A DNA stretch of 62,832 nucleotides, the filler included. It is 5 parts of 5 records of this genome, joined end to end, with 100 filler letters (N's around TTAATTAATTAA, not from the genome) between each part and the next. Parts side by side here need not be neighbours in the genome. Positions count along the whole stretch, not along the records: positions 43,364 to 56,011 come from DRR378314_2053; 4 more parts are not named here. One strand, written 5' to 3'. Made by a program: the position numbers and the translations under genes. This document shows, piece after piece, positions 20,300-56,111 of the stretch (positions are counted from its first letter, which is position 1; each line of letters starts with the position of its first letter). The notes under the pieces were generated by a model, which did not search any database, was not told the origin of the DNA, and worked only from the letters and a program-made list of their open reading frames with translations.

Positions 20300-20304
20300 A
20301 AGCG

Positions 20305-24662: not shown

Positions 24663-24665
24663 GTT

Positions 24666-25667: not shown

Positions 25668-25680
25668 TCAGGAGCAAAAC

Positions 25681-27177
25681 ATGACATTAACAGGACAAAG
25701 TTTAGTAGCAGGACAATGGATTGGTGATTCAGCGAATGGTGAATTTAACGCATTTTCCCCAGCGCGCAATGAACCCCTCTCCACACGCTTTTTTAATCTG
25801 AGTGCCGCTGAATTAGACGGGGCGATAGCGGCCGCGCAATCGGCTTTTTATGAGTATCGTAAAACCAGCTTTGCGCAACGAGCAGATTTTTTAACGTGTA
25901 TTGCAGATCACATATTGGCGCTAGGAGATGATCTACTTGAGCAAACTCATCAAGAAACCAATCTACCCATGATGCGTTTGCAAGGCGAGCGCATGCGAAC
26001 CGTTAATCAACTTAAGGCATTTGCCAGTGCTTTGCGCGAAAACCCTGAATCACCATTGGGTTTAAAAGTTGTGGACGAAGCCGATGCCGCAAGAGCACCG
26101 TTACCAAAACCACATACAGAGCTTAATTATTTACCGCTTGGGCCTGTGGCCGTATTTGGCGCATCTAATTTCCCGTATGCCTTTTCAACACTCGGTGGCG
26201 ACACGGCAGCAGCACTGGCAGCAGGTTGCCCAGTGATTGTAAAAAATCATACAGCGCACCCGGGAACCGGTGAGCTAATGGCACGTGCGGCGCTTGCCGC
26301 TATAAAAGAATGTGCGATGCCATTAGGCGTGTTTGCAATGGTGCAAAGTAAGGCGTATGACATGTCGCATCAGCTCGTTGCTGCGCCGGAAATTAAAGCG
26401 GTTGGGTTCACTGGCTCATTTAACGTTGCTAGTAAACTGCAAGCGACCATTGCAAAGCGTGAAGAACCCATCCCATTTTATGGTGAGCTTGGCAGTATTA
26501 ACCCCCAAGTTATTCTACCTAATAAAGCAATTGAACAGAGTAAAGAAATTGCACAGTCACTTTGCCAGTCAATGCTGATGGGCAACGGGCAGTTTTGTAC
26601 CAGCCCAGGGTTGTGGTTAGTGCCAACGGGATGTGATGAGCTTGAAGCACACATTACAGCGTGCATTGATGATGCCCCGTCAGATACGTTACTCACCCCG
26701 GGGATTGTTAACACGTTTAAACACCAAATAGCAGCGCGTAGTCAGCTTGATAAGGTCAGTGTGTTAGGTGCAGGCAAACTTGCACAGGCGTTTCATGCCA
26801 ATGCACATGTATTCGCGTGCAACGGCGATGACTACTTAGCAACTCCAGCTTTACAAGAAGAAGTGTTTGGCCCTGCGGCGTTAGTTGTGCGCTACGACAG
26901 TGAACAGCAGCTCATGACATTAGTAAATCAATTGCAAGGGCAGCTAACCGCCAGTGTGCATGGTACCGACGCTGACTTAAATAAAGCCGATAGCCTTATC
27001 GAAACGCTGCAATATAAAGTGGGTCGTTTGATAAAAAATCAGATGCCAACAGGCGTTGAAGTCTGCGGCTCAATGAACCACGGTGGGCCATTCCCAAGCT
27101 CAACAGATGTACGTAGTACTTCTGTAGGTACAAATGCAATGTTACGTTTTATGCGACCAATTTGTTACCAGGCATAA
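25681..27177 (+). CDS. Alpha-ketoglutaric semialdehyde dehydrogenase (ALDH family)
   Basis: GPVAVFGASNFP, VGFTGS, GELGSINP, GQFCTSPG, EEVFGP and HGGPFPSS; pathway context. Confidence 0.9.
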   Translation: MTLTGQSLVAGQWIGDSANGEFNAFSPARNEPLSTRFFNLSAAELDGAIAAAQSAFYEYRKTSFAQRADFLTCIADHILALGDDLLEQTHQETNLPMMRLQGERMRTVNQLKAFASALRENPESPLGLKVVDEADAARAPLPKPHTELNYLPLGPVAVFGASNFPYAFSTLGGDTAAALAAGCPVIVKNHTAHPGTGELMARAALAAIKECAMPLGVFAMVQSKAYDMSHQLVAAPEIKAVGFTGSFNVASKLQATIAKREEPIPFYGELGSINPQVILPNKAIEQSKEIAQSLCQSMLMGNGQFCTSPGLWLVPTGCDELEAHITACIDDAPSDTLLTPGIVNTFKHQIAARSQLDKVSVLGAGKLAQAFHANAHVFACNGDDYLATPALQEEVFGPAALVVRYDSEQQLMTLVNQLQGQLTASVHGTDADLNKADSLIETLQYKVGRLIKNQMPTGVEVCGSMNHGGPFPSSTDVRSTSVGTNAMLRFMRPICYQA

Positions 27178-27184
27178 AATAATT

Positions 27185-27217
27185 AATGCGGGAGTCACTA
27201 TTGCATATTCCCGCATT
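27185..27217 (+). terminator. Hairpin after the aldehyde dehydrogenase
   Basis: AATGCGGGA...TCCCGCATT followed by CCTTT. Confidence 0.55.
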
Positions 27218-27309
27218 CCTTTATATACGCTCGCTAAGGACGTAATCTAACTTGGCATCTCATGTTACTTGAGTATAATGTATGCTAAATGCAATATTTA
27301 AGGAACACC

Positions 27310-27978
27310 ATGGCTATCGAGCACAAAACCCGCACCCAACTTGTTGCAGAAGCAATCCGTGAAAAAATATTAACAGGCGAGATAAAAGCCGGTGATCCGC
27401 TTCGTCAAGCTGCATTGGCTGCTGAGCTTAATGTAAGCCGTATTCCTGTTCGCGAGGCGCTGCTTCAGCTTGAAGCTGAAGGGCTTGTTAACTTTGAGGC
27501 TCATAAAGGTGCCACAGCAACAGAGCTTTCTGCATCACAAATTGATGAAATTTTTGATTTAAGAGCGTTACTTGAAGCCGAGCTACTAAGCCACTCAATA
27601 GAGGGGTTAACCAATCAAGATTTAATCGATGCAGAGCTTATTTTAACTGAACTTGAAAGCGCTATGGACGCAGGCGATACACACCTTGCAACGGGCGATT
27701 TAAATAGCCGTTTTCATGGCAAATTGTATTCGCGCGCACAACGCCCACAAACTCGTGAGCTGGTTGATATGTATAGTAAAAATTCAGAGCGCTATGTTCG
27801 TATGCATATATTGTTAGCCGGTGGCCTAACAACAGCGCCAGAAGAACACCGTACTTTACTAGAGTTTTGCCGCGCAAAAGACACTAAAAAAGCCTGTGAT
27901 TTTTTGAAAAAGCATATATTGGGTGCCAAAAACGACATTAAAAAGCTATTACTTAAAATAGAAGACGAAAAAAGGTAG
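27310..27978 (+). CDS. GntR/FCD family regulator (probable HypR)
   Basis: IREKILTGEIKAGDPLRQAALAAELNVSRIPVREALLQLEAEGLV winged HTH and FCD domain; AGGA RBS. Confidence 0.9.
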   Translation: MAIEHKTRTQLVAEAIREKILTGEIKAGDPLRQAALAAELNVSRIPVREALLQLEAEGLVNFEAHKGATATELSASQIDEIFDLRALLEAELLSHSIEGLTNQDLIDAELILTELESAMDAGDTHLATGDLNSRFHGKLYSRAQRPQTRELVDMYSKNSERYVRMHILLAGGLTTAPEEHRTLLEFCRAKDTKKACDFLKKHILGAKNDIKKLLLKIEDEKR

Positions 27979-28071
27979 CTTTTCGTAAACTATTGCTAGC
28001 ACATTCATATAATGTGCTTTAACGCGTTAAATTTATTTGACAAAAATATACAGCTGTTCTTTTTACCTGTT

Positions 28072-28411
28072 TTATAACCTAGAGAATGGACTAATCACGC
28101 CATTTGCACCTTGTTGTAAAACATGCGTATAAATCTGAGTTGTTCGCACATCACTATGGCCTAGTTGCGCTTGAACCGTTCTAATATCAGCACCACTTTG
28201 TAGTAAATGTGTTGCAAAAGAATGGCGTAAGGTATGCGGAGTAACGTGTTTATTAATTTGTGCATCACAAGCTGCTTTTTTAACCGCGCGCTGTAATTGT
28301 TTTTCATCTATATGATGTCTTCTCAATTGCTTACTTTGGGGAGCAATGCTGAGTTTATAAGATGGGAATAAATATTGCCACCCCAGCTGCTTGTTATGAT
28401 TTGGGTATTTT
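28072..28411 (-). mobile_element. intI: Integron integrase, 3' part (5' cut by contig end)
   Basis: Frame open to the contig edge: [33 protein letters not shown] (integron-specific insertion), then [12 protein letters not shown]...[23 protein letters not shown]. Confidence 0.92.
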
Positions 28412-37411: not shown

Positions 37412-40400
37412 TTAGTCGTTGAACGATGAAAATTTTTCTGCGCTGCCCGCAGAACGTAAATCTTTCCGTTCGGCTAGTTCAAGCGTCATTAGGATCGACT
37501 TTCGAGTTCCCTTGGACGATAATGATTCAAGCAGACTGGAGAAATCGATGATGGTAAGGCTGCGGGCTTTCCTGTGGTGGTACATGGCAGAGTCGGCACA
37601 GCACAGTGGCAAGCGGGCAAGCGCATTGGATCAGAAGGGAAACCCAGCGAACCACGCTTCCACACCGCAGCAGGTTCTTTGCTTGCACGTTTCCTTCTGG
37701 CGATGGCGCGCGCACGAATACCCACTCGTCTTTTCTTCTGCCTTGTATGACAATATTTGTGCTTGATTTCACTCTGCTTACCCGAATGATGTGAGTACGA
37801 AGTGCAGAGGCAGCTTGCAGCCAGTTTTGTGACCAAGTGCGTCGTGTAGCAAACCTGGAGGCTTCCCATCGTCGCTGTCTCAGCGAGACCTGAGCACAGC
37901 CTTCGTTCCTTGCGAGTGCACTTTCAGATTTTATGATACAAAAAACAAAGAAAACGAGTAAAGACTACAGCGCCAAGTTTTTCATTTGTGCTCTCTGGTT
38001 TACCACACTTGGCTCTGTTGCGCGGTCCGGGGTAGGCATATGGGGGTTGGGCCTATGGACGCCTCCCTCGCTAGGAGCAGACGCTGGAGCTGCAGTGACA
38101 AAGCAGGCCGGTTGCAGCAGTGCCACATGAAACGCACCACTCGTGGACAAATCGGCGAACAAGCTCGAGATATACATCATTGGTAGTATCAGAAGTTGAA
38201 TTTTTACGCTGGAGTGTTTCTGTGTGACCTTGGCGGATCCAGCCCAGGGCCACTTTGCTTAGGTTGATGGATACGAGCGCCAGCGGGAAGTCCTGCGCGC
38301 GACGCGGTGACGCACAGCACGACACACGATTTGAGCACGTGGGGCTCCCCTTGGACAGAGCAGCGAGTTCTGTTGACCAAACAGAGGCGCGTGATTCAAG
38401 GAAGAGAGCTCACTGAAATAAAGCAATGGCGGAATGGTTTTTTTCTCTAATGTTTCTTCCATGCAGCGGGCGCTGGCGGTGGGCTCATAAGCATTGGGGC
38501 ACGTTTGGCTTTCCGGTGCTAGCGCTTGGTTCCAAGCACCACGAACGTGTCCGCAAAGCCAATGACTTGGCAGCAGCCGTGCGACGTCCCGATCGTCTGG
38601 CGTTGCCAGAGTGGTCAACTCTGATGTTTGCCATTCCTTATTCCCAACGTTTCGCACGTACATGGTCGGGTATAGTTGATAGTGCAAACATAGCTCGTGC
38701 AAGCGCAGTGTGCTTCGTCACTAGCCACAGGAGCTGAGAAAGTCCCAAGAGCCCGAGGTCGCGAAGATCTGTTGCGGGATCGTTGCCTTGGAACCCGACT
38801 TTTTCCCAGTGAGGGCCTCGCGCAGGCGGCCGGTGCTTTTCTTCTGCGTGCCCATGCAGAAAGGCGAAAGAAGAAGGCTTTACATACGTACTTTTCAGGA
38901 GAAATGATTACATATGTTATCAAATAGATCAATGGAAACTGGCTGCGGCAAAGTGTGCGGGTACGCATGCAATTTGTGCGAAAGACCTCGAGCACGCCAC
39001 CCTCGCTACAGTACCGCCCAACGAGTCTGCCCGGTCGCCGGCGCGACGCGGGCACTGCACCCAAGCGATCGCGCGCCCAGAATGCGATCCATAGTTGCAT
39101 ACTGAGTGTACGTACACGCGCGTTAGTAGACATACCTACGAGTCGCATATAGATTGTTGCAAACGCAGCGTCACAGAGCACTCGACTGTCCTCATACGCA
39201 GTGCGCGCAAGCGCGACGACCTGCGCAGCAGCTCGCAGAGAAGTCTTCGTGCTGCTGCGGTCGAATGCGGAGCACCTGCAGCATAGCAGCTTTCCCCAAG
39301 GCGATGGTGCATGGCTCTGTTGTAATTGCGCTGTTGCTGCATCGATTCTGTCCTGTGTAATTATATCACTGACATGGTGCTCAAAGTCTTCCCATAGTAT
39401 TCCAAACGGCCCGAATGCGAGAGACACAGTGGCGGCTGGCGTGTCGGTAGGCGCCAGCATTTCTGCTTCTCTGTTCGCGCCCCACTTGTCGACTGCTCCG
39501 TTCGCGCGATCCACTGCTGCCCATTCAGCTTCCGCAGCGGCTTTTGCAGCCGCTCTATCCGTACAGTGATCAAGCGTTTCGTTTGTGCGCGGATGATCCT
39601 GAGAAGAAGAAAGTCCTGCGGGAAGAGAGTCGCCACTAGGCGGGCCCTTTGGCGACGGCGCGAGCGTTTGGTGTGCGGCCTTTGCACTGACGCTATCGCC
39701 CGGTGGGCTAGCACACGCACTGTCAGCGCTGGACGAGCGTAGTGGGCTTTCTGCGTGTGGCAACCGAGGTACACCGGTAGCTTCCGACTCGCTACGGGCG
39801 CGCCGGAGAAGTCCGCTACTCTCGATCACGTCATTACTGCAGAAAGTCGAAGGACGGTCGGTCTCTAAAGGCGAGGGATCGAAGGGGAGCAGTGTGCTTG
39901 GAGGCTCGGGCGTGGCTTTCCATTCGCCGGCTGCACTCGCGGTGACGGCCTCTGCTTCTCGTGCAGCGGGAACGCTCTGCTGTGGGTGCATGTCCAACCC
40001 AGGCGCCTGCGGTGTATCCCCGCTATCCATCGGAACTGTATCACCATCTCCCAATGCTTTGACCGTCGAGATACGGGTATGTAAGCTTTCGGGACGCTCA
40101 CTTGTTGTAGTCTTTGCGCAGTGAGCGAGCTGGTCGAAAGCCGGCACATATTCCAAAGGTGGGATTGCGTGCTGATCGGAGCCAGATAGCAACTGGGCCT
40201 GGGGCGTGTCCTGATTTCCGTAGGCGCCTTCTTCGTTCTCTGACCCTTTGCTTTCCTCCTCTGCTCGAGCATGTCTTATGCATGCGACAGAAGAACTGTC
40301 CGGTTGTGGATGTACAACTGTCGCGGAATTCGCAGCCCTTGGAGGTTCGGAAGCCTGGATTTTTCCACTGTCCTTTGAGCGGGACGCGGAGCTGGCCGCC

Positions 40401-42898
40401 GGTTCATCTGCTTCCTGCCAAGGTCCGCCAAGTCGCTCCTTTTCCTGCGTTGTCTCGATGGAACTGTGTAGTCCTGCGCTCGCAGAAAACTGCGGTACGC
40501 CCGATTCATCGATCGTGCCAGATACCATGTCCGTTTGTTCGCCTGGTAAATCTGGCAGCGCGACCATGTCGGCATACCCGGTGGTGGGCGCATATCCGGC
40601 GCTTGGACGCTGCGTTCCTTCGACCTCCGTGCCACCGTCGGAAGCGGCTGCGCCTTGAGCTTTGAGCGGATAAGCAATAAACAGCGCATGCGTTCCATTT
40701 CGTTACACAGAGGTTTGTAACGCATCGTCGGAAAGGCAAGTCAGTAGGGGGGATGAATTTTTCAGCATTTTTTTAACTCTCACTGTCTTCATGCCCGTAC
40801 ACGTGCCATCCTGTGAAAGTTGAAGAGCCAAGGTGCCTCTTGCGAGGGCCTCGCACTTTTGCCGTGCGCAAGCCCAGCGTCGCTCTACTTGCAGGGCCTT
40901 GCGCAACGCCAAGGCAGCTCAGGGCACCTAATCCCTCTCCACATTTGTATATACAGCAATAGATTAATGCAAGGGTGGAATAATATTCTTCAAAACCCAC
41001 TTGGCTTGGGCGTAGGGAAGAGCGCGGTGCTCTAAAGCGCAAGGGGTTAGTTTCCCGCCGCGGAGTACGCGTCCCCCGTTGCAGGAGCTTTTTGTCACCA
41101 TGCGCCAAGCAGTCTTGCTACCAGCCCCATTCTTCCCCACCTTGTTGGCGAATAAGAACAAGAAGAAAAATTTCATTCATCAAACTGAAATTGTAGCACT
41201 ATTGGGAACACTCGATTCGACACACCATTCGGAGAGGTTGCAAGCGAGTTCTAGTCGAGAGGACACGGTTGTGCACGATGACTAGCACGAGGAGGCGAAG
41301 ACGCCCGCCGCAATGCGCGCTTTGTCGGTTGTGAAGGACGTACTTTTGTTTGGCGTTAGACCCAATGAAGTATCAGTTTCATCATTGCGATAGGTGCCGC
41401 TTATTAGCTGTAGGAGCTGTGACTCTGGTATACTCTCATCACATTGTACAGTAACGTGGCCTTCGTCAGGGAGAGACTGGAGCGGGCGCTGCGCTTTCAC
41501 AACCGGGCGCGGATCGACACCGTCGAGGTGCGCGTTGATGGCCTGTTCATCTGCACTCGAAATGTACAGACACACACATGCCAAAGCTCAGTGTCAGGTA
41601 CGCGAGGCAAGTATATGACTTAGATGCAAAACAGAGAAAGGAATGCAATGTCGCGAATAGTTTTAGGGGTATTGCACACTATAGCGTTGGCCTTTTAACG
41701 TTTCCGCTGACAGGAGTCAGCACCTCTGCGCCAATTCGCTTTTCCTCGCAATAATGGGCAAGCTGCTACAGCGACGAGTGATATCTCCGCCAAAACTTGC
41801 GTGTCCTCTCTCTTTCGCTCCCGTCTCGGTTCTACAAAGCACCCTAACTAAATTCGAAAGATGGTGCAAGACCTTTTTCGAGGTCAGCTGGTGCGAAAGA
41901 TTTTTCCCGAGAGTCTACCATGGATAGCGCGCCCCCGGAGGCGAGCTTTTGTCACTGTATGCCTGCTACTCGTCCTCCACGAGTCGCGTACGTTGTAGCG
42001 TGACGAACTACCAGATAGAGTGTATGCTGTCTACATCGTGAGATAGGAAAAATGCACACAAATGTTTTCACAGAATAGAGAAAGTATGAAGCCTGCTTGG
42101 ACAGTATTTGCTGTGACCTGCGCTTGGGAATACAGCACACCCACTCGCCGTAGCGCACCATGGGCACCGCCGTCGTTGTCACTCACGAGGATGGATCGCG
42201 CGATTCCTGCAGATATCGCGCAAAAACAGCGTAGCATAGGCACCAGAAAATTCTTATGTCATACGCCTCTACAAACTTTGTACTGTAGCCCAGTTTTTCT
42301 ATAGTGCAATGAATTTCAACAAGGTGTCTTTGGATTCGTCAAACGTGTCCGTAGGCGTATGTGTACTTGCTTTGAGTGCCCCGCGAAATCGAGCAGCTCC
42401 GGCCACCAACGTAGCGAGAAGGACGTAGGTACAAGCATTCGGACAAGCAACAATTAAACAGCTGGATCTTTACACTTTCTCTTAGAATTGAGGGTTTGCA
42501 CGAGTGCATTCGGTGCAGAAGACCAATTATGACAATCAGATAGTAGAAAGCGCATAATGATTCTTCTTGGCCATGCCGCCCTTGCGATTCTGTCACGCAG
42601 GGGTCAACGACAAGCGTAGAGCTGCCACGTTGGCGCAAGTTGCGAGTGGCGCTCCCTCGTCGAGGTTTTGAACGCCTGCTTCTGCTAATTCTACAGTCTG
42701 TACGTGCATGCAAAGATGCACTATGCATGTGCGCATGATCATTGATCTCGAACGTTGTGTCGTCTGCGCTTTTCTAGGCGCCAGGAGCTAACGCTGCGTT
42801 CTGCTCGGAATATCCGCCAGCATGTGCTTCGTACCATAGCCGGCGTCCTCTGTATCACTTTCCGAGGATGATGAGTATGAAGTTGCCGTAGACCCCAT
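37412..42898 (-). CDS. Spliced ELMO/CED-12 domain protein (ELMOD3-like Arf/Arl GAP) with long low-complexity N-terminus
   Basis: Well-supported exons 40659-39136 (5' edge tentative), 38843-38662, 38292-38138 and 37571-37412 give RGPHWEKVGFQGNDPATDLRDLGLLGL...DH|DFPLALVSINLS...HEW|KARSLTIIDF. Tentative 5' exons 42898-42835 and 41550-41344 are phase-compatible. Confidence 0.85.
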
Positions 42899-43363: not shown

Positions 43364-46300
43364 GGCATCCGCGAGATTCGGCTGGATGGCAAATGTCACA
43401 TTGCTGTGCAGCGAGAGCGTGTCTGCGAGCTCATGCTCGAGGATCGGCTCGGCAACTTCACCAGCAGTCAACATCTCGGCGCCGTAGACCGACGCCACAA
43501 GCGCCTCTGCCCCACCCTGCGCGTCCGCTTGCGACGATCCGCCCGCAGCACCTCCCGGCGCCATACCAAGGCGGCCGGCGCGCTCCAGAATGCGGTCCAC
43601 GACAGCGCGAATATTCACCGTGTCCATATCCGAGTCGCCGACCGAGACGAACTGCCCCACGATCCCGTTCAGATACACCATTGGGAAGACACCGCGAGTC
43701 GACTTGCCCGGCACATACGCGACATTTTTCGCTCGGCAGCGCTCCCAGAATGTCTCAATCGAGAGCGACGCAGGCGGCTTGTGCTTCCAGCACAGCCAGC
43801 GGCGCCCACGAGCGAAGCTGTGCACAAACAGCTTGGGGAAGTGGGCCCCATTGAACCGCCCAGTGTTGACATCCGTGAGGTATGGGCGCCCCTTCACGCT
43901 GAGGAAATCGAAACCGCCCGGGCCTCGCGGGGCGATCTGGCGGCAAATCGAGACGACCATGCGTTCGCACGCGCGTCCGAGCTTCTCTGGCGCCTGGCTC
44001 GGGCGCCAGCCGTCGTACTTGACACCGTTCATGATCTGGTCGACCGAGTCGCCGAACACGTCTTTTTCCACGTAGTGGAACGCCGGCGACAGCACGATCC
44101 CGTCGTCAGCGCGATCAAGATCGAGCATCTCCTCGAGAATGACTTCGCCCCACGAAAACGTGTATAGCTTGAGCTCCTCGACGGACGAGCAGAATTCGAT
44201 GCCTTCTCCTGCGGCGCCGAAAATCGGCTTCACAACAACGCGCTTTGAGCCCATCACGTGATACGCCTCGAGGAGATCGGCCATATTGGAGCACACAAAG
44301 CCGCGCGGCACACTGATACGCCCTGCGCCGATGCGCTCCAGGAGGGCTGGCTCGTCAGGCCGCCGGACATGACGGTGCAGAATCCCCTTGTGGCCGTACT
44401 TCGTCACCCAGTCCGCGTCGTCGCCGACAATGCGCACGCCGAGGGCGCGCAGGCGCGAGGACCAGTCCATCAGCCTTTCGGTGACCGTGTACGGTACGAG
44501 CACAAACTCCGAGGGCGGCTTACCAGACTCCTGGATAAAGCCAAGAATCCGATTCACAACATCGTCGTCGATCTCCGTGTCCATCGACAGCTCACGCCCG
44601 CCGGGAGTGAAAATGACCTGGCTCTCTTCCAGGCCAAACTCGCGCTGGTAAAACGACACCATCGAGCGGCCTTCTGAGAGCTCGCCGGGCAGAATCACAA
44701 TGTCGCGCCCCGGGCGAACCAGGCACAGCGACCGGTACGCGAGGTTGATACGCTGCGAGTAGCGCCGGTACTCGGGGCGCGTTGCCTGTACAACGATGCG
44801 GTTGAGGCTTTCCTCGAAGAACGACGCGACCCGCGTGGTCGGCGCGGGCGCCGGTTCGCGCACGGCATCTGCGGCGGCCACTCGCAGCCGCTCCGTGTGC
44901 GCGCGGTCGTCACCGACAATTGCGAGCGCCGCCGCGCCCTGGCGGCGGAACGCCAGAGGGAACACACCAGCATGCGACTGTCCTGGAGTAAGCGCGATTT
45001 CCTGGTCCGCCAGGCGCTGCCAGAGCGTCCACACATCCACTGTGCGATGAGGGACGGCATACAACACCATCACATGCGCATCATCCGGCACATACTGCTC
45101 GCAGAACAGCTGCGCCATGATGAGAGGCGTGAGCCTTCCGGCGCGCACCCCGAGAACAACAGGCACGCCATCGTGCACATTGAACACCACCGATCCCATG
45201 CCCGACGGGCGCATGCGCTGCAAGAGCGCTTCGACGAGGCGGCAGATACGCGTATTCACCTCGTCCCCGAGTTCGGCGCGGCGAGCGCCGATGCTTACAC
45301 CACCCAAGCGAATGATTTGCATTGCATCGTCACCCACCACTTCCTTGCGCGAAAACGCCACTTCGCACGTGAGCGGGAGACCATCGTCACTCATGCTGCA
45401 AGGAGGCTCAAGCATGAGCAGCGCATCGCCGAACGGGAAGTCGTACAGACGCAGCTGCTCAATGCTCTCTACATCCACGGTGACGAGGGCGTGCGGTGCA
45501 TGCACGGGCACGATGCGTACGCGCTGCGTCTTCTTCGCGCCAAGTTTTTCGGCCGCTTTGACGAGGTCATCGCGCGTCGAGCACACGAAGGCGTCTGCCA
45601 GCTTGCAGCCGTGCGCTGCGGCGTCGCACGCAACCGCAGCGGCGCGGCCATTGATATGCGGGAACAGCACGCCAAAGTGGCACTGCTCGCGGACCCAGGC
45701 CTCGAGGTCACCGGCAGAGCGCGCGTTTCCGCGCACAACAGGGTCCATCCACGCGAGGAATGGCTCGTCAAGACTCGAGGGCACAAGCAGCAGGTGCTCG
45801 GCACCAAGCTCCTGCAACGCGGTCAGTGTCGCGCATCCCGGGCGCCCTTCGGCAGGGACCACCGCGAGCGCGGGCTGCTCGCTGCCCCCGGGCGAAGGAG
45901 GACGCGAGCGCGCGCTCTCGGCAGCGTACTCGCTCAACACTTCGTCGACGTCTTCGAAGATCGCCTGTTCGGCATCGAGGCCGAGGACAGAGCGACAGAA
46001 CTCCCAGAACTCGAAGGTTTGCGGATCGTGTGCGGGGAGGACAACGATATCTTCGCCCGGTCGAAGCAGCGAGGCTGGCATAACGGGAAGGAGATTGTTT
46101 GCCAAGCGATCACTCGCGTCGCTCGCTGTCGCGCCGGTCGGCGATGTCAGGCACCACACGCGGCGCCGCTGCTGGCGTTTCATGACAGAGCCGCGGCTGA
46201 AGTGGGACAGAGGCTGCGCAATGGTGTTTTTCGTCTGCCGCTGCACGACCCGCTGCGCTGTGCGCTGAAGGTGCAATACATTCTCACGAGACGATCCGAC

Positions 46301-49300
46301 GGCCAGCAACAGCGCCGATGACCCGAAGTCGAAGGCAAGCGGGAACACGCCAATGCCACCTTTCTCGCCCACGCCCTCGAAGGCAACGTCGCGTTGCATG
46401 AGACGCTTCCAAATGCCAAAGATTTCCACGTTGCGCGCCGGCTCGGTGGCCCACAGCATCCACGCTTCCGGTGCAGCGTCTGCCTGGCCGCGGAGGCGAT
46501 CAAAGGCGAGCATAACCAGCGCAAGCAACGGCATGCGGCCGAGCTGCACGTCGGCGAGGAGCGGCCCGCCCGTCGCGCCGAAGCCGTCACCATCGACCGC
46601 TGTTCCGGGCAAAATGAACGTCAGCATGCCCGGCCCGCTCGGCCTGAGACGGCGCAGTGTGTTACGTGCAGCTTCCGTGATGCGTTCGCGCGCAGCGCTG
46701 TCAAGATTTTCAGCGCTTTCGTAGCACAGCGCCGCGGTGGCCGATCCACTGCGGTCAAATGCGTACACAGGGAGCACGTTGCTGCCGTGAAATGCGACGA
46801 GCAGGCGCGCGCCGCTGCACTGCGGGGCGATCACAGACGTGCCGTATGCACGGATGAGCGCCTCGGCATCCGCGGCGGACGTCACTGTCGCTGCGAGTCC
46901 GCCAGAGGCGCGACGGACCTCGAACGTCACTTCCCCGCTGCCATCGCCTGCGGCGAGCGACTTCATCGCCGCCGCCGCGTCGTCGGCGCGCTGCACGGTG
47001 TACCCCGGCAGGCACTGCACGCGCGCCTTGCGAAAGAAGGATCCCTCGGACGTGACTGGCCACGACGGAAAGAGGATCGATCGCTTTCCGTACCGGCCGA
47101 TCCATTCGTCGCTGTCGCCAAACATTCCCACGTTGGGAAACGCAAAGTTGTTCAGCCACGAGCGCTCTGCGGCGGAGGCCTCGATAGGGATGAGCACGAT
47201 CTCGCCTGTCGTGTTCGACAGGCGCTGCGCGAGCCGCTCGCGCAGAAACGCGTCGTCGGTCGCATCCGAGTCGCCGTACCACAGCACGTCGTCCTCTGTG
47301 ACACCTTCAGCCGTCTGCACAAACTCGGCGAACCGCTCTGTGCTTGCCTGCGCCGGAAGGACGCAAATGTCGCGCTGTGGGCGCGCTGCCGCGAGAATCG
47401 CGCAGATTGTCTGCGTGCTTGCTCCGTCTCCCGCGAACCACACGCGCCGGGCGTCCGCATGGTCGAGCGTCACAGCGGGGATCTCGCCGGCGCTGGCGCC
47501 ATCCTGCACGAGCGCCTCTGTTGTGGCACGCAGTGCCTCGAGCTCGGCCTCGGTGGGCGCGGCAAGCAGGCAGTGCATGCCGACGGCGCCGGGCACAAAG
47601 CACGTCGGCAGCACGCCGCGAACTGGCGCGGTCGACTCCGGTGAGAGCGCAGTGAGATCGAGATCGGAATCTGCATCCTGCAGCCGCTGCCACAGTGTCC
47701 ATACGCTCAAATCCTGCGCACACGGAAGACGGCACGCCGACCAGAGAGTCCGGCTTTCGCTGCTGCGCACCATTTGGTCGGCGCGAGAGATCGCCGCAGC
47801 AACGACGTGCGCGCGCGTGACCCCGGAGAAATAGCGATACAGGGTGGGCATCCCGTCCACAAAGACAAACTCAAACGTCGTAAAGCTGCGTGGAGCGAGT
47901 TTGTGTAGCATTGAGGCGACGAGTTCGAGGGTTTTCTCGTGCACGCCCACGTTGGCGACCTCGCGCCAAATCACAGGGCGGCCGCCAAGCGAAACGTGCG
48001 AGAGAATCGGCTCCAGCACGTCTGTGCCAACGCAAGGAACCGAAACGCGAACCGTGAGACCGGCTTCATCCCGGTCCCAGTCGCGCTCTTCGCGCGCAAT
48101 GATCGGGCCCATTGGAAAATCGTAATTTTTGGCCTCTGCAAGACTTGTCAGCGTCACCTTCGCCGCAAAAGGATCGCGAACGGCGGTGATCGACAGCGTG
48201 CTGCTCTTGAGCACGCGCCACGCCACGGCAAGGTCCTTGACCGTCCGGCACTGAATGCCGCGCACGATCGACGACGGAGCGACACCAAGCTCAACCGCAC
48301 GAGTCGGGAGGTCCAGCTTAGCAGCAAGCGGGAACAGCCACGCCTCGGTGCGGTAGTTGCGGGCAAAGTCGTGCTCCTCCGTGAGCGCGTAGCACTCGAG
48401 TTCGTGAGCCAGCTCCGAGTACAGAGTGGTGTCGTCGCTCATGGGAACAATGACCATGGACGAGCAGTCGGCGCACACCGAGCGGATCGCATCGCGCGCG
48501 CGCGAGACAAACGCTGCCGGCGAGTGAAAGACATCGATAGAGCATAGGATGATACATTCACTATCGATGCCAATACCGAGTGTTTCGTGGAAAAATTGGA
48601 ACGAAGCAGCCAGCTCCTCGGGCAGCAAAATGCGGTCGTGCGACGAGAGCATGGGGAACGACCGCGCCACCCTTTCCCACCAGCGCCTCTTCAGCCCCTG
48701 CGCAAGCGAGCACAAGCAAGAACATCGAGCGCGGTAAGCGCCACGAGGAGGACGCACGTGTACATTTGGTCATATATCATTTTTGCATATACAGAATGGA
48801 GCTTCTATGCCGTAGAGTTTGCCCATCCTGCGAATGCGCAGCAGAGGTCAATCGAGCAGGACGCAGGAAGCGGGTCGATTGCTTGCTCACCGCGTTCCCA
48901 GAATGGAAACACGCGCTCACGCGACGAGGCGCTCTGCCCGTGCGCCCGCTCGGCGCCGCCACCCCGCTTTCCGGCGCCGTGGCACACCAAGCACCAGCGC
49001 GCGTTCGCTGTGGCCCCACGCTGCCCGCGTTTGCACAGCCGTGCACACGCAAAATAGGTGCTTATATCCGCCTACAAACAGATTATCCTTGCGTGAAATA
49101 CAGCAGCAAAATAAATAAATACGCAAATATGCTATTCAGCCGGAGTCGGCAGGTTTTCTTGAGGGGAGCGCTTGGCGAGAGGCGCAGAGGCGGGAACGCC
49201 GCGCACAGCGGTGGAAGTACGCCTGCTGCAAGGCAGTGGGCCAGCACGTCGTGCGCGAGCTTGCCTCGGCGAGCGCGCGTTCGCGCACGCCAGTCTTGCA

Positions 49301-49950
49301 CGCGCGAGCTGCAGCAGTGAGGGAGGCCACGCCTGTGCTTGCGTAACCCTTCAGAGCACAGTGACCCGGCAGCCTACACCCACGCCATGCGCGACTGCCG
49401 CTGCGGAACGAAAGTCCCCACAGCCACCCGCGCGTTCAAAGCGCGCCCGCCCATCGTAATGCCCACGCGATTATTACAGAGCAGAGGAACATCGGTATGC
49501 AGGGCACCTCCGCACACGGAAACAACGCCAACGGGGGCAAGGCACGTGCCCGTATGGCGCCCACGGCGCCGCGGGCTCCCGCGTGCGAGCGACGAGACGA
49601 CGGCTGGAGAAAAAAAGCACCAACCTCTCGCTCCCAGCACGTTCGCCTGCCCCTTCGCGCGTGAACACGCCAACGGCGAGCGCCGCGCGCAATTCCGGCA
49701 CCTCTTCTCCGTATCAAAACGCCCCCCTCCGCTGCGACGTCAAGCGCAAGACGGCGGCGCCGTGCAGTGCGTGCTGCTGGAGCTGCCGCCGTGTGCCCCC
49801 GCTTACCTCGCGACGAGACGCGAGCGCGTCCGACGGCGGTGGAATCCATAGCTTCTTCGCTGCGCGAAAGGCTTCGAGCGTCGCAGTGCCGCCGAGCAGC
49901 GGCTCCACCGGAAGGACGGTTTCGTCAGCTTGCTGCGAAGTCCCAGACAT
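43364..49950 (-). CDS. Protein of more than 1800 aa with four tandem ATP-grasp ligase-like modules (3' cut by contig end)
   Basis: Exon 48697-43364 is open throughout. Probable first exon 49950-49807 (GTAAGC donor, phase 0, CAG acceptor at 48698). Module 4 has PRGFVC, VVVKPIFGAAGEGI, ILEE, GPGGFDF and LTDVNTGRF; homologous blocks recur every ~1.3 kb. Confidence 0.85.
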
Positions 49951-51890
49951 TGCAGAAATTTCGATATCCGCGCGCTACTTGACACACTCACGGCCCGCAG
50001 AATAATGTGCAACCACGTTCGTCTGGAGCGACAGGGGGCCCCGGGAAGGTTTCGCAGCGCGGAGCTACGAACGGAAACCGAGTAGCAGCGGAATATCCCG
50101 GTGCTCCAACGCCAGAGCGAAGCGTGCCGACTGCACGGACCGATTCGCTGATCACCGCAGTGTCATGGTCCCGATGCAGACCGGCAGGCTGCACCTTGGC
50201 AGCAATTTCACGGGCGCTAGAGTTCCGCAATGTTCGAAATAGGGTTTTATGCCACATGATAATATGTTGAACAGGGGCTCCCCTGGACACTCGAGGCTGT
50301 TACTTGTGCAACTCCGCCGCTGCTCTGCGCTCAGCACGAACAGGCAGCTGTTCCATGTCTGGTGGGGCTATCAACTCGACTTGCGAGCAGCATTTCTGTC
50401 GCATTCGCTCTCCAAGTTTTGTTGGCCTTCGTGGTCAGAGGGAATCGTAACGGAACTTGGTGAGTGGGAGGCGCGACTTGCAGTGGCAGCGTTGCGAGCG
50501 CGCTTTGCGCAGTGCGTTGCCATGACCCACCACGGACCTGCCGCAGCAGCAAATCCGAAACGCGGTTAGCCATGTGCATGGCAGGGGGAAAGTTGATAGC
50601 CCCAAGCAGCGTGCGTGCCGCCCGTTTTGCCCGTTGAGTACGCACGTGCCAACGCGCTGCTCTTGTGAGGCGCGTTAGAACGTACTCTGCTACGATACGG
50701 AACGGCTTTTTTCGTCAGAGCGAGTGTGCGAATAATACAGAAAAATTAGAAACGCGAATACTGAGGCTTTGCAAGTTGACTCTAAATGCACTATGGTCTC
50801 GGAAAGGCGGGACGAGCGAGCGCACAGGAGCGCACAGAGCTTCCTAGGCAGACTTGGGCGGCGGCCAGCAGACGGAGCAACAACAGCCTCCGCTCGTTGC
50901 AAAACGCGATTCCAGCGCTCCCAGCGTCAGGCATGATGTTTCCCTCAGGTGGTAATGTGAACAATCCATTCATTCAATGATACGCAGGTCTGTATCATAT
51001 CGCTTCTCATAGCTACCGTAATGGTTGGCCTTGCAAGCACAGCGGTCCACACGCGCTGTCGGTGCCTTGGACACCGGCGTCGTGGCGCGGTCCAAACGCC
51101 GGCACTGTAGTCAGCTGAACCTGCGCAGCATGCGGATTGACCGTGTGGCCCGCAAAGACTGGAGAGGACCGTTTCCATTTTGGGATCGCCCTTGTGCAAG
51201 GCTTGAGAGGACTATCCCTCCGATCGTCAAGCAAGCGCGACGCGAAAGGCCCGTGGAGACCTCCTTGGCTTCACAATGTCACGCCTTCACGGAAAGAGAT
51301 GCGCCTGCCTTGCCGACAATACAGAATGACATAATGCTTGTAAACAGTTGCATTGCAGCTTGGCGCAATGAAGCAAACAAACTGAAATAAGGTAAATCCT
51401 CCCCCTTTGACGCTGCCGCGCTTGCACAGGCTGCAGTGGCAAGGCCCGCACTGCGCGTTTGGGGCTGCGCAATCGCGCTTCTTGGCTGTTCTCCCTCTGA
51501 AGTCACGCAGCTCACTGCAACGCACTCCGCGAGTGCTCAATAACATACAATCAAACCAAACGATCATTTATTAGTAATATTTTGTAGTTCGGTTTGGCTT
51601 GGCGTCTACTGAGTATCCAGCGGAAGTTTGAGAAGTACTGTACTCTGCTCTTGCAGTTTTGCGGAAACGCGAACGATGTCGCGCGTGAAATCCATGCCGC
51701 CTGGGCGTGCTTCAGCATTCATCGAACCAACACAGAGAGCTGCTACACAACGCTTCACTCCTCCAGTATTCATCGCGGAGAAAGGGAGGTGCTATCCAGT
51801 ACCATGCATCCTGTATCTGGTCCAGAATTCTCGCAAATCTCATGCTGAACGTCTGACCAGCAGTTGCTCGCGTATAGGCGATCGTGCTGG

Positions 51891-54554
51891 CTAGTCAATC
51901 GCATCGTCCCAAGCCTGGTGCTTTTGCAGAGCTTCAATCAACGCGTCGGCCTTCGCCACCAAGCTGCTCGTTTGTTCGCCGTTGGGGCGCATTGTCGGGA
52001 GTCCCTCAAGGGCACTGAGCACGGCGCGTACGCTCTCGAGATCGGTAGCCAAGCGCCGGACAACGAGCTCGCTGGTCGCCGGGCTTGGATCTTGTGCGCT
52101 CTCGTCCCACGCGTGGAGCATCGCGCGCAGAGGACCCTGGAGTAGGCGGGTGAAGCCGAGACGCCGCGAACCAGTAAGCGGTACAGGATCGCGCCCATTA
52201 GCTTGTAATTCACCGATCAAAACGTCAATACACCACATGGCGATCTGCAAGACGTATGCGATGCGCTAATAAAAAGTATGCACGTACTAGACTGCGGCCC
52301 ACTGGATATTCGCTGTGCTTTACGTTCGCACGGCGCTTGAGCCGCGCAGGAATTTTTCACCCGAACGAGGAGCGTCGAGAGTGGCCATGTTCTCGATTCT
52401 CCTTACCACGAGATCGCGATGGACTGCCGCAGTAAATGCCTTGACATCTGTTGCAAGGATGCCCCGAATATGTACGGTGAAGTCAACGGCATCCCGGATG
52501 GCATCCTGTCGTAGGGCAGCGGAGGTAGGTGATGCCGTACAGGGCACGCTCTCGCTTGCTCCGGTCGCGGAGAGGAGGGAACCCGCCGGACAAAATGCGA
52601 GAATGTCCTGTATCGAACGCGTCGATTCGTCAATAACCGAAATCGCCTCGGCTACCGTTGCTTGCTGTCTAGTTGCCGCGGTTGGAAATGCGGACTGCAT
52701 CACGGCGATTGCTGGAGCAATGTTTTGCATCTGCACTTGGCACACAGGTGCAGGGCACAGTATGATCGATGCATCAAGCAGGGCTTCTACTTCACCTTCA
52801 ACAACACCGATGATCCTGACGCCACCAAACAAGTTTTTGGCTTCCAGCACCCATTTGTGGTCTTGTTCCATATTTAGAATTGCCCGTAGTGTCTCTATTT
52901 ACTCACAACGAGAAGAGACTGCTGCTCTGTGCAAATTCGAGTGCGCCGCATTCCGTGTGCGACAAGGGCACCTTGGATGCAAAGCCTCAATTTTCCTGGC
53001 GTGTACTTCCAGTCGCTTCAAGGTACGCACCACTTTATACGAGTCCCGCAAATTCTTCTCTACAGTATGTAAGTACGAAATCGGCATAGATGGTTCGGCT
53101 GTTACATCTGCATCCTGGGCATTGTGCCGGCGTGCTTCGCGGAGTGACAATAGGGCATCCTCGGCACTTCGCGTCAACGCCTCTGCCGCGGCCGCAGCAT
53201 TTGCCCGCAACCGGCTGCCGTCTTTGCCGCCGCATTCATCTTCCCAACGGAATGTTGCGATCTCACTTGCACAAGAACGAGCATCAAGCACCGTGGAAGT
53301 CACACGCTGGAAATTTTGCAGCACATTGCGAAGCGTCTTTTCCGCCTGAGATGCTCTGCGCTCCAGGTGAGAGTTCTGGTGCAGCAGCAGAACCAGTCTC
53401 CGCTTATCGAGTGCAGCCGTCGATGACTCCGGGTGCCCATTCTCCGTTGCACAAACTGCATCCAGCTGTACATGAAGAGCACAAATCGCCGTTCCTCAGC
53501 AATGACGATATTTTCTCTAGTTCACACATCTTGTGTGATCACTTGAATGAAGAGAAGCTATCGATGTGAGAAGCTACAAATTCACAGCACAGAGGGAACG
53601 GGAGCCGCCGTCCGCAACGACAGCGGGCGGCGCCGAGTGCAAATCTTCCTCTGGCGGTTTGGTTTCCTTCGCCCTTTGCGTAGACTAATACAATGTGCTG
53701 ATGGAAACGTACAACATTACGCATATATTTGACGTCATCTTCGAACTGGGCACGAGCATCTGCGTTGAGGAGGATAGATGCGCGGCTAGGTTGCTCCCAT
53801 TGTCCGACGTTGCAGGCGTCCGTCGAAGCGTCACTTCCAGTAGGGACTTCAGCTTGGGGTGGCTCGATTCGTCTATCTTGTTTTCCCGGTCTCCGAGAGC
53901 GCTTTCTGCTATCAAGATGGCGTTCCAACGCATCTATGGCCTTGAGGAATGCCACCTTTTTGGTTGAGTTTCCGATATCTGCAAAGGAAATCTCGAGCGA
54001 CGGAACCACATTCTGTCCATCGGATAGCGCAGCGTAGAAAGTAGAGCCCGCGCCAATGTGGCCCAGTAAATCTCAGGCACGGCGCCACGCATACAGACAA
54101 TGACAAGCGCTGCCATTCTTCCAGACATATAATCGTGGAAACCCCAATATTATGTCATAAAGGAGTCGATCATCGTTAGCATTCATATTTACTTGAGACG
54201 AGTCTACTCAAAGCCAGCAGAAGAGCAGCTTACGGAGGGTTCGGGGTATCAGAAACGCTCGCGGCTGTGCCCGTCGTACTTGAAGTCGACATGCGGGCAC
54301 AACAACCTGTGGCCCCGCAAAGCGCTGCAACAGAGGCAGAAGAGTACCTTGAGATCTTGCTCTGCAATCTTGCCGAACACGCGCCGAAAAGCCTCCTCCG
54401 AAATTCGGCGTTGCTCGGCAGTCCTGTTCGTACGCTCCTCGAGTGCCAGCTCTTCTTTTCTGTCCCGGCACAGCGCGTCGAGAGCTGGCTTGCCACACAA
54501 CCGCAGTAGTGTGCAGAGCAAGCGCTCCCTTGTCTCCCAATTCAAATTTTTCAC
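51891..54554 (-). CDS. Probable spliced gene(s) of unknown function
   Basis: Run of abutting same-strand ORFs with helical, protein-like composition (51891-52250, 52320-52871, 52899-53324, 53539-54009, 54249-54554); exon model not resolved. Confidence 0.4.
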
Positions 54555-55305
54555 CTCCTATAGTACAGATAATGTTCAGATCACGAACATTAAATGTCAA
54601 GCAATAAATGCACCATTTTTCTTTATCGAGAAGGTGTGGTATAGCATATTGAACTCTCTATAGTCTGCCCAGTACCGCGGTGCGGAAGCCTACGCGCCTA
54701 CTACTGCGGTTGAGCGCGTGCACAGTGCCGTCAAACAAAGGCTCGCCGGGCTTCAACATCACTTGCGTTTTGGTCCTAGTTTCACGTGCGCGATTACAGT
54801 ATTCTGCAAACGCACCTCAAAAGTTAGGTCATGAAATGCTTTGCAGCGAAGGAGCCGTTCATAGAGATTGCGCAACTTGGCGGACATCAAAGGGCTAATC
54901 TTGCAGCACAGCGGCGCGAAACCCCTACGCGCGGAGTATCCGAGGTGCTGTAATACGCATGGAATGCTGCAATGAAAAGAGAATACCGAACGTAGATATT
55001 GCCTATTCGCGGATGTATATATCCCAAACCGTCTGTGTAAGAGAGGAGTTTCGCGCCGTGCGCTTCCTGCGCGAAGATGTGAAACGATTGGGGCGAAGAG
55101 CCGTCGAGAGAAGTGTCTGCGCCTCCGCTTCTGCGTTGGAATCGCTTCGAAGCCCTGTGGCTGATGCAGAAGCACACCTATGCTTCTTGTATGTCCTTGC
55201 GGCCGCGCTGCCCGGGTGTCCTGGCCTGCGAGGCTTCCGCAGACACGCGCGAGAAGCCGTGGCGCCGTACGCAGTCTGTGTACAGTTCGCTCCGGAGCGG
55301 CAACG

Positions 55306-55642
55306 ATGGCCTCTCTCCGACGTTTCCGCTTCAGTGACTTTTGGTCATTCAATGCAGTAAATTTGGATCACCTTACGGAAACGGTGTGTACTTTTAATGA
55401 GAATGAGCGAGCGGGGCCACTGCGCGCTGCAACAGCGTGCATACCTGGCTGAGCATAGGTGCTGCACAGGCACTCGTTGCGCACTTGCGGCTTGCTGTCT
55501 CACGCGGCGCTGTCACGTGGTTTGTCCCTGTCGCTCGGCCTATTTCGCAGTACAATATATCGTTTTATTTTCGATATTTGGCGCAATGGCCGGATTTCTT
55601 CTACGTGGCCGAGAACTCGGGGGGCCGAATGATGGGCTACAG
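55306..55642 (+). CDS. NAA20: N-alpha-acetyltransferase 20 (NatB catalytic subunit), first two exons
   Basis: Exons 55306-55383 and 55551 to ~55642 give MASLRRFRFSDFWSFNAVNLDHLTET|YNISFYFRYLAQWPDFFYVAENSGGRMMGY, the NAA20/Nat3 N-terminus. Confidence 0.88.
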
Positions 55643-56011
55643 GTGCGACATTCATGCACTGCTGCACTCGCCTTCTCCGCCGTGCCCACGCGCTCCGCCG
55701 CGGCGTAGCTAGCGGCTCACACTGCTCGTGCAGTGCCTCCTACACTTCCTCTGACTTTGGGCCTGCTGTTTGTCCCATTCTCCTCTTTTTTGTTTCGCAG
55801 TATGTTGCAGATCTAACAGCTACTTCAAAATGTATATGAAAATGCGGGTGAGAGCCTTGGAGCGGTGTGCTTGCAGCCTGACTTCCCCGTTGACGGTACT
55901 CGCCGTCTGCGCGATGCCCAGAGTCAGTGGCGAGTTCGACTGCGCTGCTTCTCGAGTTGCAACGTTCCTATCCCGAAACACTTGGGACTTTCTCTTGCAG
56001 CCGGATACATA

Positions 56012-56111
56012 NNNNNNNNNNNNNNNNNNNNNNNNNNNNNNNNNNNNNNNNNNNNTTAATTAATTAANNNNNNNNNNNNNNNNNNNNNNNNNNNNNNNNN
56101 NNNNNNNNNNN
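56012..56111. other. Artificial contig spacer
   Basis: N44-TTAATTAATTAA-N44. Confidence 0.99.

Follow-up and report, generated by a model that had tools for sequence, protein, structure and literature searches.

ATP-grasp ligases convert a carboxylate into an acyl-phosphate, from which the acyl group is transferred to an amine. The known enzymes of the PGM1/BesA type are single-unit bacterial proteins that derive from secondary-metabolite clusters. PGM1, the pheganomycin peptide ligase (3WVQ/3WVR), activates alpha-carboxylates, as does LdmS; BesA and BtrJ are omega-carboxyl (gamma-glutamyl) ligases, activating the gamma-carboxyl group of glutamate. In glutathionylspermidine synthetase/amidase, the ligase that forms a bond is fused to the hydrolase that cleaves it, and the two are regulated against each other. 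Here, a stretch of 62,832 nucleotides of DNA (the window) was analysed, in which the contig at positions 43364-56011 carries on its minus strand a gene encoding a protein of at least 1826 residues (48 + 1778 codons), the C-terminus being cut by the contig end. This protein, the target in the following, very probably consists of four tandem units of which one is catalytically live and three are dead, and relatives in several eukaryotic groups carry in addition an isoaspartyl dipeptidase of the IadA type.

Compared with the described systems, unit 4 of the target shares its predicted three-domain fold, across its whole chain, with PGM1, with BesA (8YI6) and with a Streptomyces protein deposited as 'ATP-grasp peptide ligase' (8YND/8YNQ), and the PreAtp-grasp Pfam domain, which was defined on PGM1, is found in some relatives of unit 4. 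However, the identity to these proteins amounts to only 13-20%, there is no sequence-level match and no PGM1_C domain in unit 4, and in contrast to the single-unit bacterial enzymes the target comes from a eukaryote, comprises a tandem array of four units of which three are dead, and belongs to a family fused to a dipeptidase. Glutathionylspermidine synthetase/amidase and trypanothione synthetase-amidase are similar in that they combine an ATP-grasp-type amide synthetase with a hydrolase cleaving the same kind of bond, but they use an unrelated hydrolase, belong to another ATP-grasp clade and have no pseudo-units, so that they would serve as a functional analogy only. The next-best structural neighbour is LdmS (SAOUHSC_02373; 7R8Q), a stand-alone ATP-grasp amino-acid ligase (PMC9486568), which differs by its N-terminal family, LdmS_N, and by being a single-unit bacterial protein. 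The C-terminal domain of the relatives is the same as in IadA (TIGR01975; 1ONW, 7CF6); IadA enzymes are stand-alone octamers in bacteria (PMC10206079), unlike the domain of the relatives, which is fused behind the ATP-grasp array and is unseen in the target. Finally, the cyanophycin synthetases CphA1 and CphA2 are ATP-grasp ligases of beta-aspartyl products, the breakdown of which ends with isoaspartyl dipeptidases, and CphA2 retains a dead ligase domain (PMC10273328). The target differs from them in having neither N nor M domains and a likeness limited to about 56 residues, its structural neighbours being PGM1/BesA and not CphA. Membership in the cyanophycin synthetases was accordingly rejected, as the match is a local one to the G-domain, the NCBIfam model scores 9.5 bits against a cut-off of 877 and no Mur-ligase domain was found.

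The gene is composed of two exons. An in-frame stop at 49975-49977 lies just 5' of the ATG of exon 1, and the splice is in phase, joining ...ASRRE to GLKRRWW... The parts of the gene and of the encoded protein are the following:

49807-49950, minus strand: exon 1, ATG at 49950, 48 codons, encoding the N-terminal strand of unit 1 (KKLWIP)
48698-49806, minus strand: intron of 1109 nucleotides, phase 0, GT..AG ends, donor GTAAGC, acceptor ..GCGCAG
43364-48697, minus strand: exon 2, 1778 codons, 3' end open, reaching the contig linker
47462-48661, minus strand: unit 1 (pseudo-unit), first strand in exon 1, no Pfam match at E ≤ 5
46178-47461, minus strand: unit 2 (pseudo-unit), no Pfam match at E ≤ 5
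44816-46177, minus strand: unit 3 (pseudo-unit), no Pfam match at E ≤ 5
43553-44815, minus strand: core of unit 4, 421 residues, predicted canonical PGM1/BesA-type ATP-grasp ligase
43364-43552, minus strand: C-terminal tail, 63 residues, predicted disordered, cut by the contig end

A single frame stays open between 48769 and the linker at 43363. In the public sequencing run X1, a spliced contig joins 48696/7 to 49806/7, skipping the 1109 nucleotides with CT..AC on the plus strand, and covers 49806-50093 on the exon 1 side; its depth is 36.4 compared with 6.9 for the unspliced contig, with a depth of 0 across 49239-49708. Another contig of this run covers 43364-48699 and thereby all four units with 22 differing letters and no gaps, and two contigs of 141 nucleotides reach 111 nucleotides past 43364. 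Since the splice is precise and has canonical ends, the spliced form in run X1 looks like a transcript, and the intron marks contig 43364-56011 as eukaryotic. The four-unit gene is real, transcribed, spliced and eukaryotic. The reading made from the sequence alone (the sequence-only reading) had assigned KKLWIP to a separate first exon, which agrees with the frame at 49714-49974 and with the splice seen in run X1, and it had noted correctly that the open reading frame runs off the contig, a linker starting at 43363.

The four units, each of about 400-450 residues, were compared with each other, whereby unit 4 was cut as 43364-44815 and hence included the tail. BLASTP yielded 122 bits for units 3 and 4, 76 for units 2 and 4, 70 for units 1 and 4, 51 for units 1 and 3 and 50 for units 2 and 3; units 1 and 2 are the sole pair without a BLASTP match. 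Alignment with hhalign to a family profile of 82 sequences covered nearly the entire unit in each case (364-407 columns), with E values of 6e-26, 1.2e-28 and 9.9e-45 and probabilities of 99.7, 99.8 and 100% for units 1, 2 and 3, respectively. Moreover, a MAFFT alignment of the four units contains 24 invariant columns, which include the DxxxLP, WxR and GV(F/L)P blocks. By these alignments the four units are homologous. The blocks that had been proposed to recur in each unit, i.e., D(R/I)xxLP, xVP, GDxxxW, PxG(P/M)G (APRSF in unit 1), (L/I/F)WxR and GV(F/L)P, occupy matching columns when the four units are aligned, and the single motifs were recovered where they had been located: RRVWFA at 47449, RRVWCL at 46165, NRIVVQ at 44803, VVKPIFGAAGEGI at 44236, ILEE at 44140, GFDF at 43915 and TDVN at 43876. 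A predicted complex of units 3 and 4, made without a supplied alignment, scored 0.01 (mark 0.34) and is no evidence either way.

The units differ strongly in their catalytic residues. Six core positions were read against a profile of active relatives, in unit 4 numbering K196, E229, D303, D315, N317 and R320. Unit 4 is complete: it has K196, the glycine-rich GAAGEGI, E228/E229, D303, D315-x-N317 and the catalytic R320, encoded as follows:

44230-44228, minus strand: codon of K196
44134-44129, minus strand: codons of E228/E229
43909-43907, minus strand: codon of D303
43873-43871, minus strand: codon of D315
43867-43865, minus strand: codon of N317

While unit 4 keeps all six core residues, units 1 and 2 keep two each and unit 3 keeps one, as the sequence-only reading had anticipated in ascribing the ATP-grasp signatures to unit 4 only. 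Unit 1 retains E229 and carries T in place of K196, E for D303, R for D315, F for N317 and H for R320. Unit 2 retains D315 and R320, the other positions being replaced by F (K196), P (E229), T (D303) and Q (N317), and in unit 3 solely R320 is left, with V for K196, L for E229, V for D303, G for D315 and R for N317. Hence, the ATP-binding lysine (T, F, V) and the Mg-binding asparagine (F, Q, R) are gone in all three, and of the glycine-rich loop and the hinge glutamates only G203 in unit 2 and E229 in unit 1 survive. Units 1-3 also lack the family-invariant residues K143, H147 and Q260 as well as the family-specific motifs GHKGILH and VDQ, for which a role in substrate binding is a guess. Scans of units 1-3 against Pfam and NCBIfam assigned no family. 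Units 1-3 are thus predicted to be pseudo-enzymes, and only unit 4 is, by its residues, catalytically canonical.

The AlphaFold2 model of unit 4, built from the alignment of 82 sequences, has a mean predicted local distance difference test score (pLDDT) of 88.1 and a predicted template modelling score (pTM) of 0.83; pLDDT values exceed 95 in residues 1-421 and drop to less than 50 in residues 422-484. The best Foldseek matches in the PDB are BesA 8YI6 (E 2.5e-18), 8YND/8YNQ (template modelling score at most 0.73), SAOUHSC_02373 7R8Q and PGM1 3WVR/3WVQ; at least 500 PDB entries match at E ≤ 1e-3, and all among the matches listed are ATP-grasp enzymes. With VIA-align, Z scores in an overall range of 20-31 were obtained: 31.2 for 8ynd, 30.7 for 8yi6 and 30.6 for 3wvq, with 3wvr and 8ynq within 28.9-31.2, compared with 25.9 for 7r8q and at most 22.4 for the generic ATP-grasp enzymes listed (PurK, PurD, biotin carboxylase). 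The root-mean-square deviation to the PGM1/BesA group is 2.6-3.2 Å over 351-381 residues, and the alignment spans the whole PGM1 chain (model 5-410, chain 1-433). According to the model, unit 4 has the three-domain ATP-grasp fold that had been suspected and falls structurally into the PGM1/BesA group. The model of unit 1, the most diverged unit (pLDDT 85.1, pTM 0.84), has as best Foldseek matches the same entries as unit 4, namely 8ynq/8ynd, 8yi6 and 3wvr; the fold of units 2 and 3 is covered by hhalign alone. The claim that units 1-3 align and fold like unit 4 thereby held up, nearly over the full length in the case of hhalign. A sequence search against solved structures revealed no close relative, the best match being a local one of about 56 residues at the ATP loop of cyanophycin synthase (E 0.0057).

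The tandem arrangement was also found outside the target. A profile search of 1.84 billion representatives resulted in 531 matches at E ≤ 1e-3 and 147 at E ≤ 1e-30. With unit 4 as query, 14 relatives of similar length and 24 longer ones were retrieved; the full-length query returned none among proteins of 971-3091 residues, a blank that reflects a word-sampling limit, since the unit 4 query gave 24. Named holders are Chroomonas, Mallomonas, Choanoeca perplexa, Baffinella, Mantamonas plastica, Hanusia phi, Guillardia theta, Salpingoeca rosetta and a pedinophyte alga, and the proteins are annotated only as 'hypothetical', 'ATP-grasp domain-containing', 'dihydropyrimidinase' or 'beta-aspartyl-dipeptidase'. 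When 40 proteins, the target included, were segmented with the unit profile, 26 turned out to be multi-unit. Exactly one unit with all six core residues is present in 21 of these 26, target counted; four have no such unit, two of them being fragments (in which the cut first unit is canonical where present) and two having a unit with five of six. One further protein, P0038 (1627 residues), has two nearly identical canonical units around a degenerate one and begins inside a unit; its second live unit is possibly a repeat from assembly. The layouts vary between lineages: choanoflagellate proteins of about 1260 residues consist of a dead unit, a live unit and the hydrolase, P0037 (2137 residues) and the pedinophyte P0043 (2295 residues) have four units, the live one being second, followed by the hydrolase, and Mantamonas P0054 (2009 residues) has three strongly degenerate units, a live fourth unit and then the hydrolase, which is the layout of the target. 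In a quick tree, unit 4 of Mantamonas P0054 is the sister of unit 4 of the target (Shimodaira-Hasegawa-like approximate likelihood ratio test support 96), and the branches of the pseudo-units are 2-4 times as long as the unit 4 branch. Judged from these proteins, the tandem architecture is not unique to the target organism and represents a family feature across several eukaryotic groups, deposited in the databases as hypothetical proteins.

The degenerate units might not be equally dead. In P0037, P0039, P0040 and P0041, which have four units with the live one in second place, the fourth unit, which adjoins the hydrolase, keeps four of the six core residues, i.e., K196, E229 and an acidic residue at 303 plus either N317 (P0037, P0039) or R320 (P0040, P0041), and may still bind nucleotide.

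Single-unit relatives also occur in bacteria. Stand-alone bacterial proteins of about 405-435 residues score 300-390 bits in the profile search, and their nearest Atlas clusters are bacterial, with Actinomycetota commonest, carrying PreAtp-grasp, PGM1_C or LdmS_N and in some cases automatic BtrJ names. PF18105 (PGM1_C) is present in 21-48% of the members of nearby Atlas clusters and was not matched in any relative scanned. The cut-off of PF18604 (PreAtp-grasp; 27.5 bits) is passed by three of six relatives scanned (P0004 34.1, P0005 32.4 and P0028 28.7 bits) and likewise by two of ten stand-alone relatives; relatives with 42-46% identity to unit 4 are among those that pass. One Atlas cluster near unit 4/P0077 (58 members, about 519 residues) is 81% eukaryotic with Rotifera as the commonest phylum, a possible further eukaryotic branch of this ligase group. 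A plasmid search for the bacterial stand-alone relatives (P0077 type) gave no match, and the metagenome locus L001 was discarded as a neighbourhood of these relatives, as its match lies inside a VIT/VWA/TonB_C protein and is spurious.

As fusion partner, amidohydrolase Pfam families are present in 18 of the 24 longer relatives. Among the other six, P0042 and P0051 hold the start of the domain with the metal motif. P0045 and P0047 are truncated within the first part of the domain, P0039 already within a unit, and in the Salpingoeca rosetta 'variant' P0059 nothing follows the live unit. The equivalog cut-off of the beta-aspartyl-peptidase model TIGR01975 (331.25 bits) was passed in all three proteins scanned, P0028, P0054 and P0043, with 389, 355.5 and 406 bits. 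Furthermore, the hydrolases of the relatives match solved isoaspartyl dipeptidases at E values of about 1e-72 to 1e-78, the HxH...GGGGE motif included, and that of P0015 matches the solved IadA 7cf6 at 9e-79. The live unit is a distant new member of the PGM1/BesA structural group, and the hydrolase of the relatives is an ordinary IadA. In the relatives, the linker to the IadA domain sits where the target has its tail. Judged from the relatives alone, the target gene likely continues past the contig end into an IadA domain.

In line with the earlier statement that no characterised protein of this kind is known, no characterised ortholog turned up in searches of sequences, structures and literature. 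Searches of the open full-text literature, without subscription journals and supplements, found no description of an ATP-grasp/IadA fusion or of tandem dead ATP-grasp units, and the PDB codes 8YND and 8YI6 are not mentioned in the open full texts searched. Tandem pseudo-units that accompany exactly one live unit, in an arrangement conserved in several eukaryotic groups and joined to IadA, appear to be an undescribed combination.

The comparison of the window with the run X1 contig also bears on whether the dead units are maintained. Within exon 2, the 22 differing letters fall into 20 codons, 17 of which are synonymous. Units 2 and 3 together have 12 synonymous and 3 non-synonymous variant codons (9 of 11 synonymous in unit 2, 3 of 4 in unit 3), unit 4 has 5 synonymous and no non-synonymous ones, and unit 1 has none. 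The binomial tail for at least 12 of 15 being synonymous is 9e-5, assuming a synonymous fraction of 30%, which speaks for translation of the dead units in this frame and for purifying selection acting on them. As a separate observation, 10 of the 22 differences lie within 46784-46820 (37 nucleotides, unit 2), where three adjacent letters alter one codon from S to A; such crowding resembles a divergent allele or a short conversion tract more than point changes that arose independently.

The interpretation that we favour, and consider moderately probable as a whole, is that of a PGM1/BesA-type protein of four units, one live and three dead but retained, that would act as a beta-aspartyl synthetase/hydrolase. 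Unit 4 alone would bind Mg-ATP and turn the carboxylate of its substrate into an acyl-phosphate, and attack by an amine would yield the amide. Units 1-3 would keep the three-domain fold as non-catalytic modules, most likely serving as built-in partner subunits or as a scaffold for the live unit, close to the hard-wired oligomer that the sequence-only reading had put forward; allosteric modules would be a further candidate role. Because relatives are fused to IadA, the ligase would make or use a beta-aspartyl (isopeptide-type) amide; the carboxylate would then be the beta-carboxyl group of aspartate and the product would contain the type of bond that IadA cleaves. The bifunctional synthetase/hydrolase could thereby set the level of a beta-Asp-X compound, along the lines of glutathionylspermidine synthetase/amidase. 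Such an activation has a precedent in AslA, an ATP-grasp ligase that activates the beta-carboxyl group of aspartate as beta-aspartyl phosphate (PMC4155827). Moreover, since IadA enzymes are octameric, the fused hydrolase could gather many ligase arrays. Within this interpretation the architecture of four units with a single live one is very probable, and the beta-aspartyl chemistry, which is drawn by analogy, is a tentative proposal about which we are rather doubtful.

Several observations speak against parts of this interpretation. Regarding the chemistry, PGM1 and LdmS use alpha-carboxylates, so that beta-aspartyl chemistry does not follow from the fold, and the substrate assignment is a tentative one by analogy. 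In cryptophyte- and pedinophyte-type proteins the live unit is the second of four and does not adjoin IadA, and members without hydrolase occur, namely Chroomonas P0004 (496 residues, labelled complete), Mallomonas P0008 and Salpingoeca rosetta P0059. In P0064 (570 residues), the place of the dipeptidase behind the single canonical unit is taken by a RING finger (zf-RING_2, E 4.9e-7), a hint that proteins may be substrates or partners of some members of the family. In the target itself, tblastn of the window with three relatives found ATP-grasp units only and no IadA, and the 63-residue tail scored -0.9 against a profile of the IadA N-termini of 18 relatives, the best of 500 shuffles reaching 9.0. 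A MAFFT alignment of the tail as the start of IadA had looked suggestive and was rejected as evidence. The expectation of the sequence-only reading that more C-terminal domains follow is probably right, with IadA being next in the relatives, although the tail is not recognisable as its start. Regarding the family assignment, unit 4 reaches 21.6 bits (E 2.6e-4) with Pfam ATP-grasp_3 (PF02655) and stays under the cut-off of 23.2 bits, which relatives pass (P0076 25.3, P0082 28.5, P0090 33.2 bits), and neither PF18604 nor PF18105 matches any of the four target units at E ≤ 5. The resemblance to PGM1-type ligases that had been suggested for the flanks of each unit finds indirect support: the best structural matches are PGM1, BesA and 8YND and relatives pass PF18604, but the target units miss both PF18604 and PGM1_C. 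The alignment behind the unit 1 model consists mostly of active relatives, so that this model is biased toward their fold, and in the quick tree the pseudo-units of different lineages are joined with supports of 45-81 and with long-branch warnings. Finally, the selection test comprises 20 variant codons and one other isolate or allele, and run X1 is the only public run found with target DNA, its status as RNA being a guess.

The alternative that survives best is that the dead units are no structural partners and instead bind a substrate, a polymer or an effector, e.g., a growing cyanophycin-like beta-aspartyl polymer or a peptide, or act in metabolite sensing. The fold and the non-catalytic blocks DxxxLP, WxR and GVFP are common to all four units, the dead units are under purifying selection and the fourth unit of P0037-type proteins keeps four of six core residues, including K196, E229 and N317, making nucleotide binding possible there; all this would suit binding modules as well. 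Similarly, the N domain of CphA enzymes is non-catalytic and the M domain of CphA2 is dead (PMC10273328), and cyanophycin synthase gives the best sequence match to a solved structure, albeit locally (E 0.0057, about 56 residues). However, K143 and H147 in the N-terminal domain and Q260 are lost in units 1-3, so that the ancestral pockets are not preserved, and the target has no Mur-ligase-like M domain or CphA N domain. The branches of 2-4 times the length of that of unit 4 fit a loose structural constraint better than a precise binding site. We therefore regard this alternative as somewhat unlikely.

A further alternative concerns the relation of the two activities. The ligase and the dipeptidase could catalyse consecutive instead of opposing steps, with IadA freeing aspartate or X from beta-aspartyl dipeptides of damaged protein or ingested cyanophycin and unit 4 ligating it via the alpha-carboxylate into an ordinary peptide. 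Among the organisms carrying the family, many live as bacterivores or mixotrophs (choanoflagellates, Mantamonas, cryptophytes). The structural proximity of LdmS (7r8q, Z 25.9), described as an L-amino acid ligase (PMC9486568), the LdmS_N-type clusters among the Atlas neighbours and the completion of cyanophycin breakdown by isoaspartyl dipeptidases (PMC10273328) point in the same direction. Against this, single-unit members without IadA exist. The fusion of ligase and hydrolase for one and the same bond in glutathionylspermidine synthetase/amidase offers a precedent for opposing steps, so that the fusion alone cannot separate the two possibilities, and consecutive steps are judged to be quite improbable.

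That units 1-3 are functionless, either as decaying relics of a recent tandem duplication or as an artefact of the gene model, would agree with the loss of nearly all catalytic residues, the very long branches and the lack of Pfam matches, but is very improbable given a frame that stays open for 1778 codons in DNA of 62-65% guanine-cytosine content (GC), synonymous changes in 12 of the 15 variant codons of units 2 and 3, degenerate units beside a single canonical one in 21 of 26 multi-unit proteins (choanoflagellates, cryptophytes, Mantamonas, pedinophyte), a confident model of unit 1 and one gapless run X1 contig across all four units.

Returning to the interpretation of a live ligase unit with retained dead copies, it can be extended to an undescribed bifunctional protist enzyme of choanoflagellates, cryptophytes, CRuMs, green and chrysophyte algae that both synthesises and cleaves a beta-aspartyl isopeptide metabolite or a cyanophycin-like beta-aspartyl polymer, the conserved dead copies being arrayed on an oligomeric IadA core, where they would bind the product or polymer or act as obligatory pseudo-subunits. 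This extended version is unlikely in our view, and to our knowledge such a beta-aspartyl metabolite or polymer has not been reported in eukaryotes. If the favoured interpretation is true, the target family would show, as a clean case from nature, how a homo-oligomeric enzyme became one chain in which a live copy is combined with several dead ones, conserved in several eukaryotic groups and maintained by selection, which would inform about the evolution of pseudo-enzymes. It would define a widespread protist enzyme family so far labelled 'hypothetical' or 'dihydropyrimidinase' and extend the PGM1/BesA-type ligases, known from bacterial natural-product pathways, into eukaryotes. Moreover, as the fusion partner points to beta-aspartyl chemistry, an unknown metabolite or storage compound would be possible in ecologically important protists, including Salpingoeca rosetta, a model choanoflagellate, and the cryptophyte Guillardia theta.

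The gene described here lies on contig 43364-56011 (minus strand) of a window that consists of five contigs joined by N44-TTAATTAATTAA-N44 linkers:

18723-18822: run of N, contig linker
28412-28511: run of N, contig linker
43264-43363, no strand: run of N, artificial contig linker N44-TTAATTAATTAA-N44, the DNA beyond being an unrelated contig
56012-56111: run of N, contig linker

Two long open frames have no Pfam family at E ≤ 1e-3, 38615-40702 on the minus strand (695 residues) and 52291-53349 on the plus strand (352 residues); the latter lies upstream of the four-unit gene on the same contig. Contig 1 (1-18722) carries a compact, intron-free nitrate-assimilation cluster of bacterial type, e.g., 7003-8490, 9293-11299, 11112-13739 and 13894-16695, all on the plus strand, which includes an NMT1_2 (NrtA-like) binding protein, a double ATP-binding cassette (ABC) ATPase, a NirB-like nitrite reductase and a molybdopterin nitrate reductase with a BFD domain. 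As bacterial contigs stand beside an intron-bearing eukaryotic one, the assembly mixes a protist with bacteria, and because the window thus combines organisms, the neighbouring contigs are uninformative on the genomic context of the ligase gene. Contig 2 (18823-28411) has a much lower GC (41-47%) and long uninterrupted open reading frames for an ABC1 kinase, an M24 peptidase and an aldehyde dehydrogenase, and contig 5 (56112-62832) encodes a bacterial ABC permease (BPD_transp_1); both contigs probably derive from further organisms within the same assembly.

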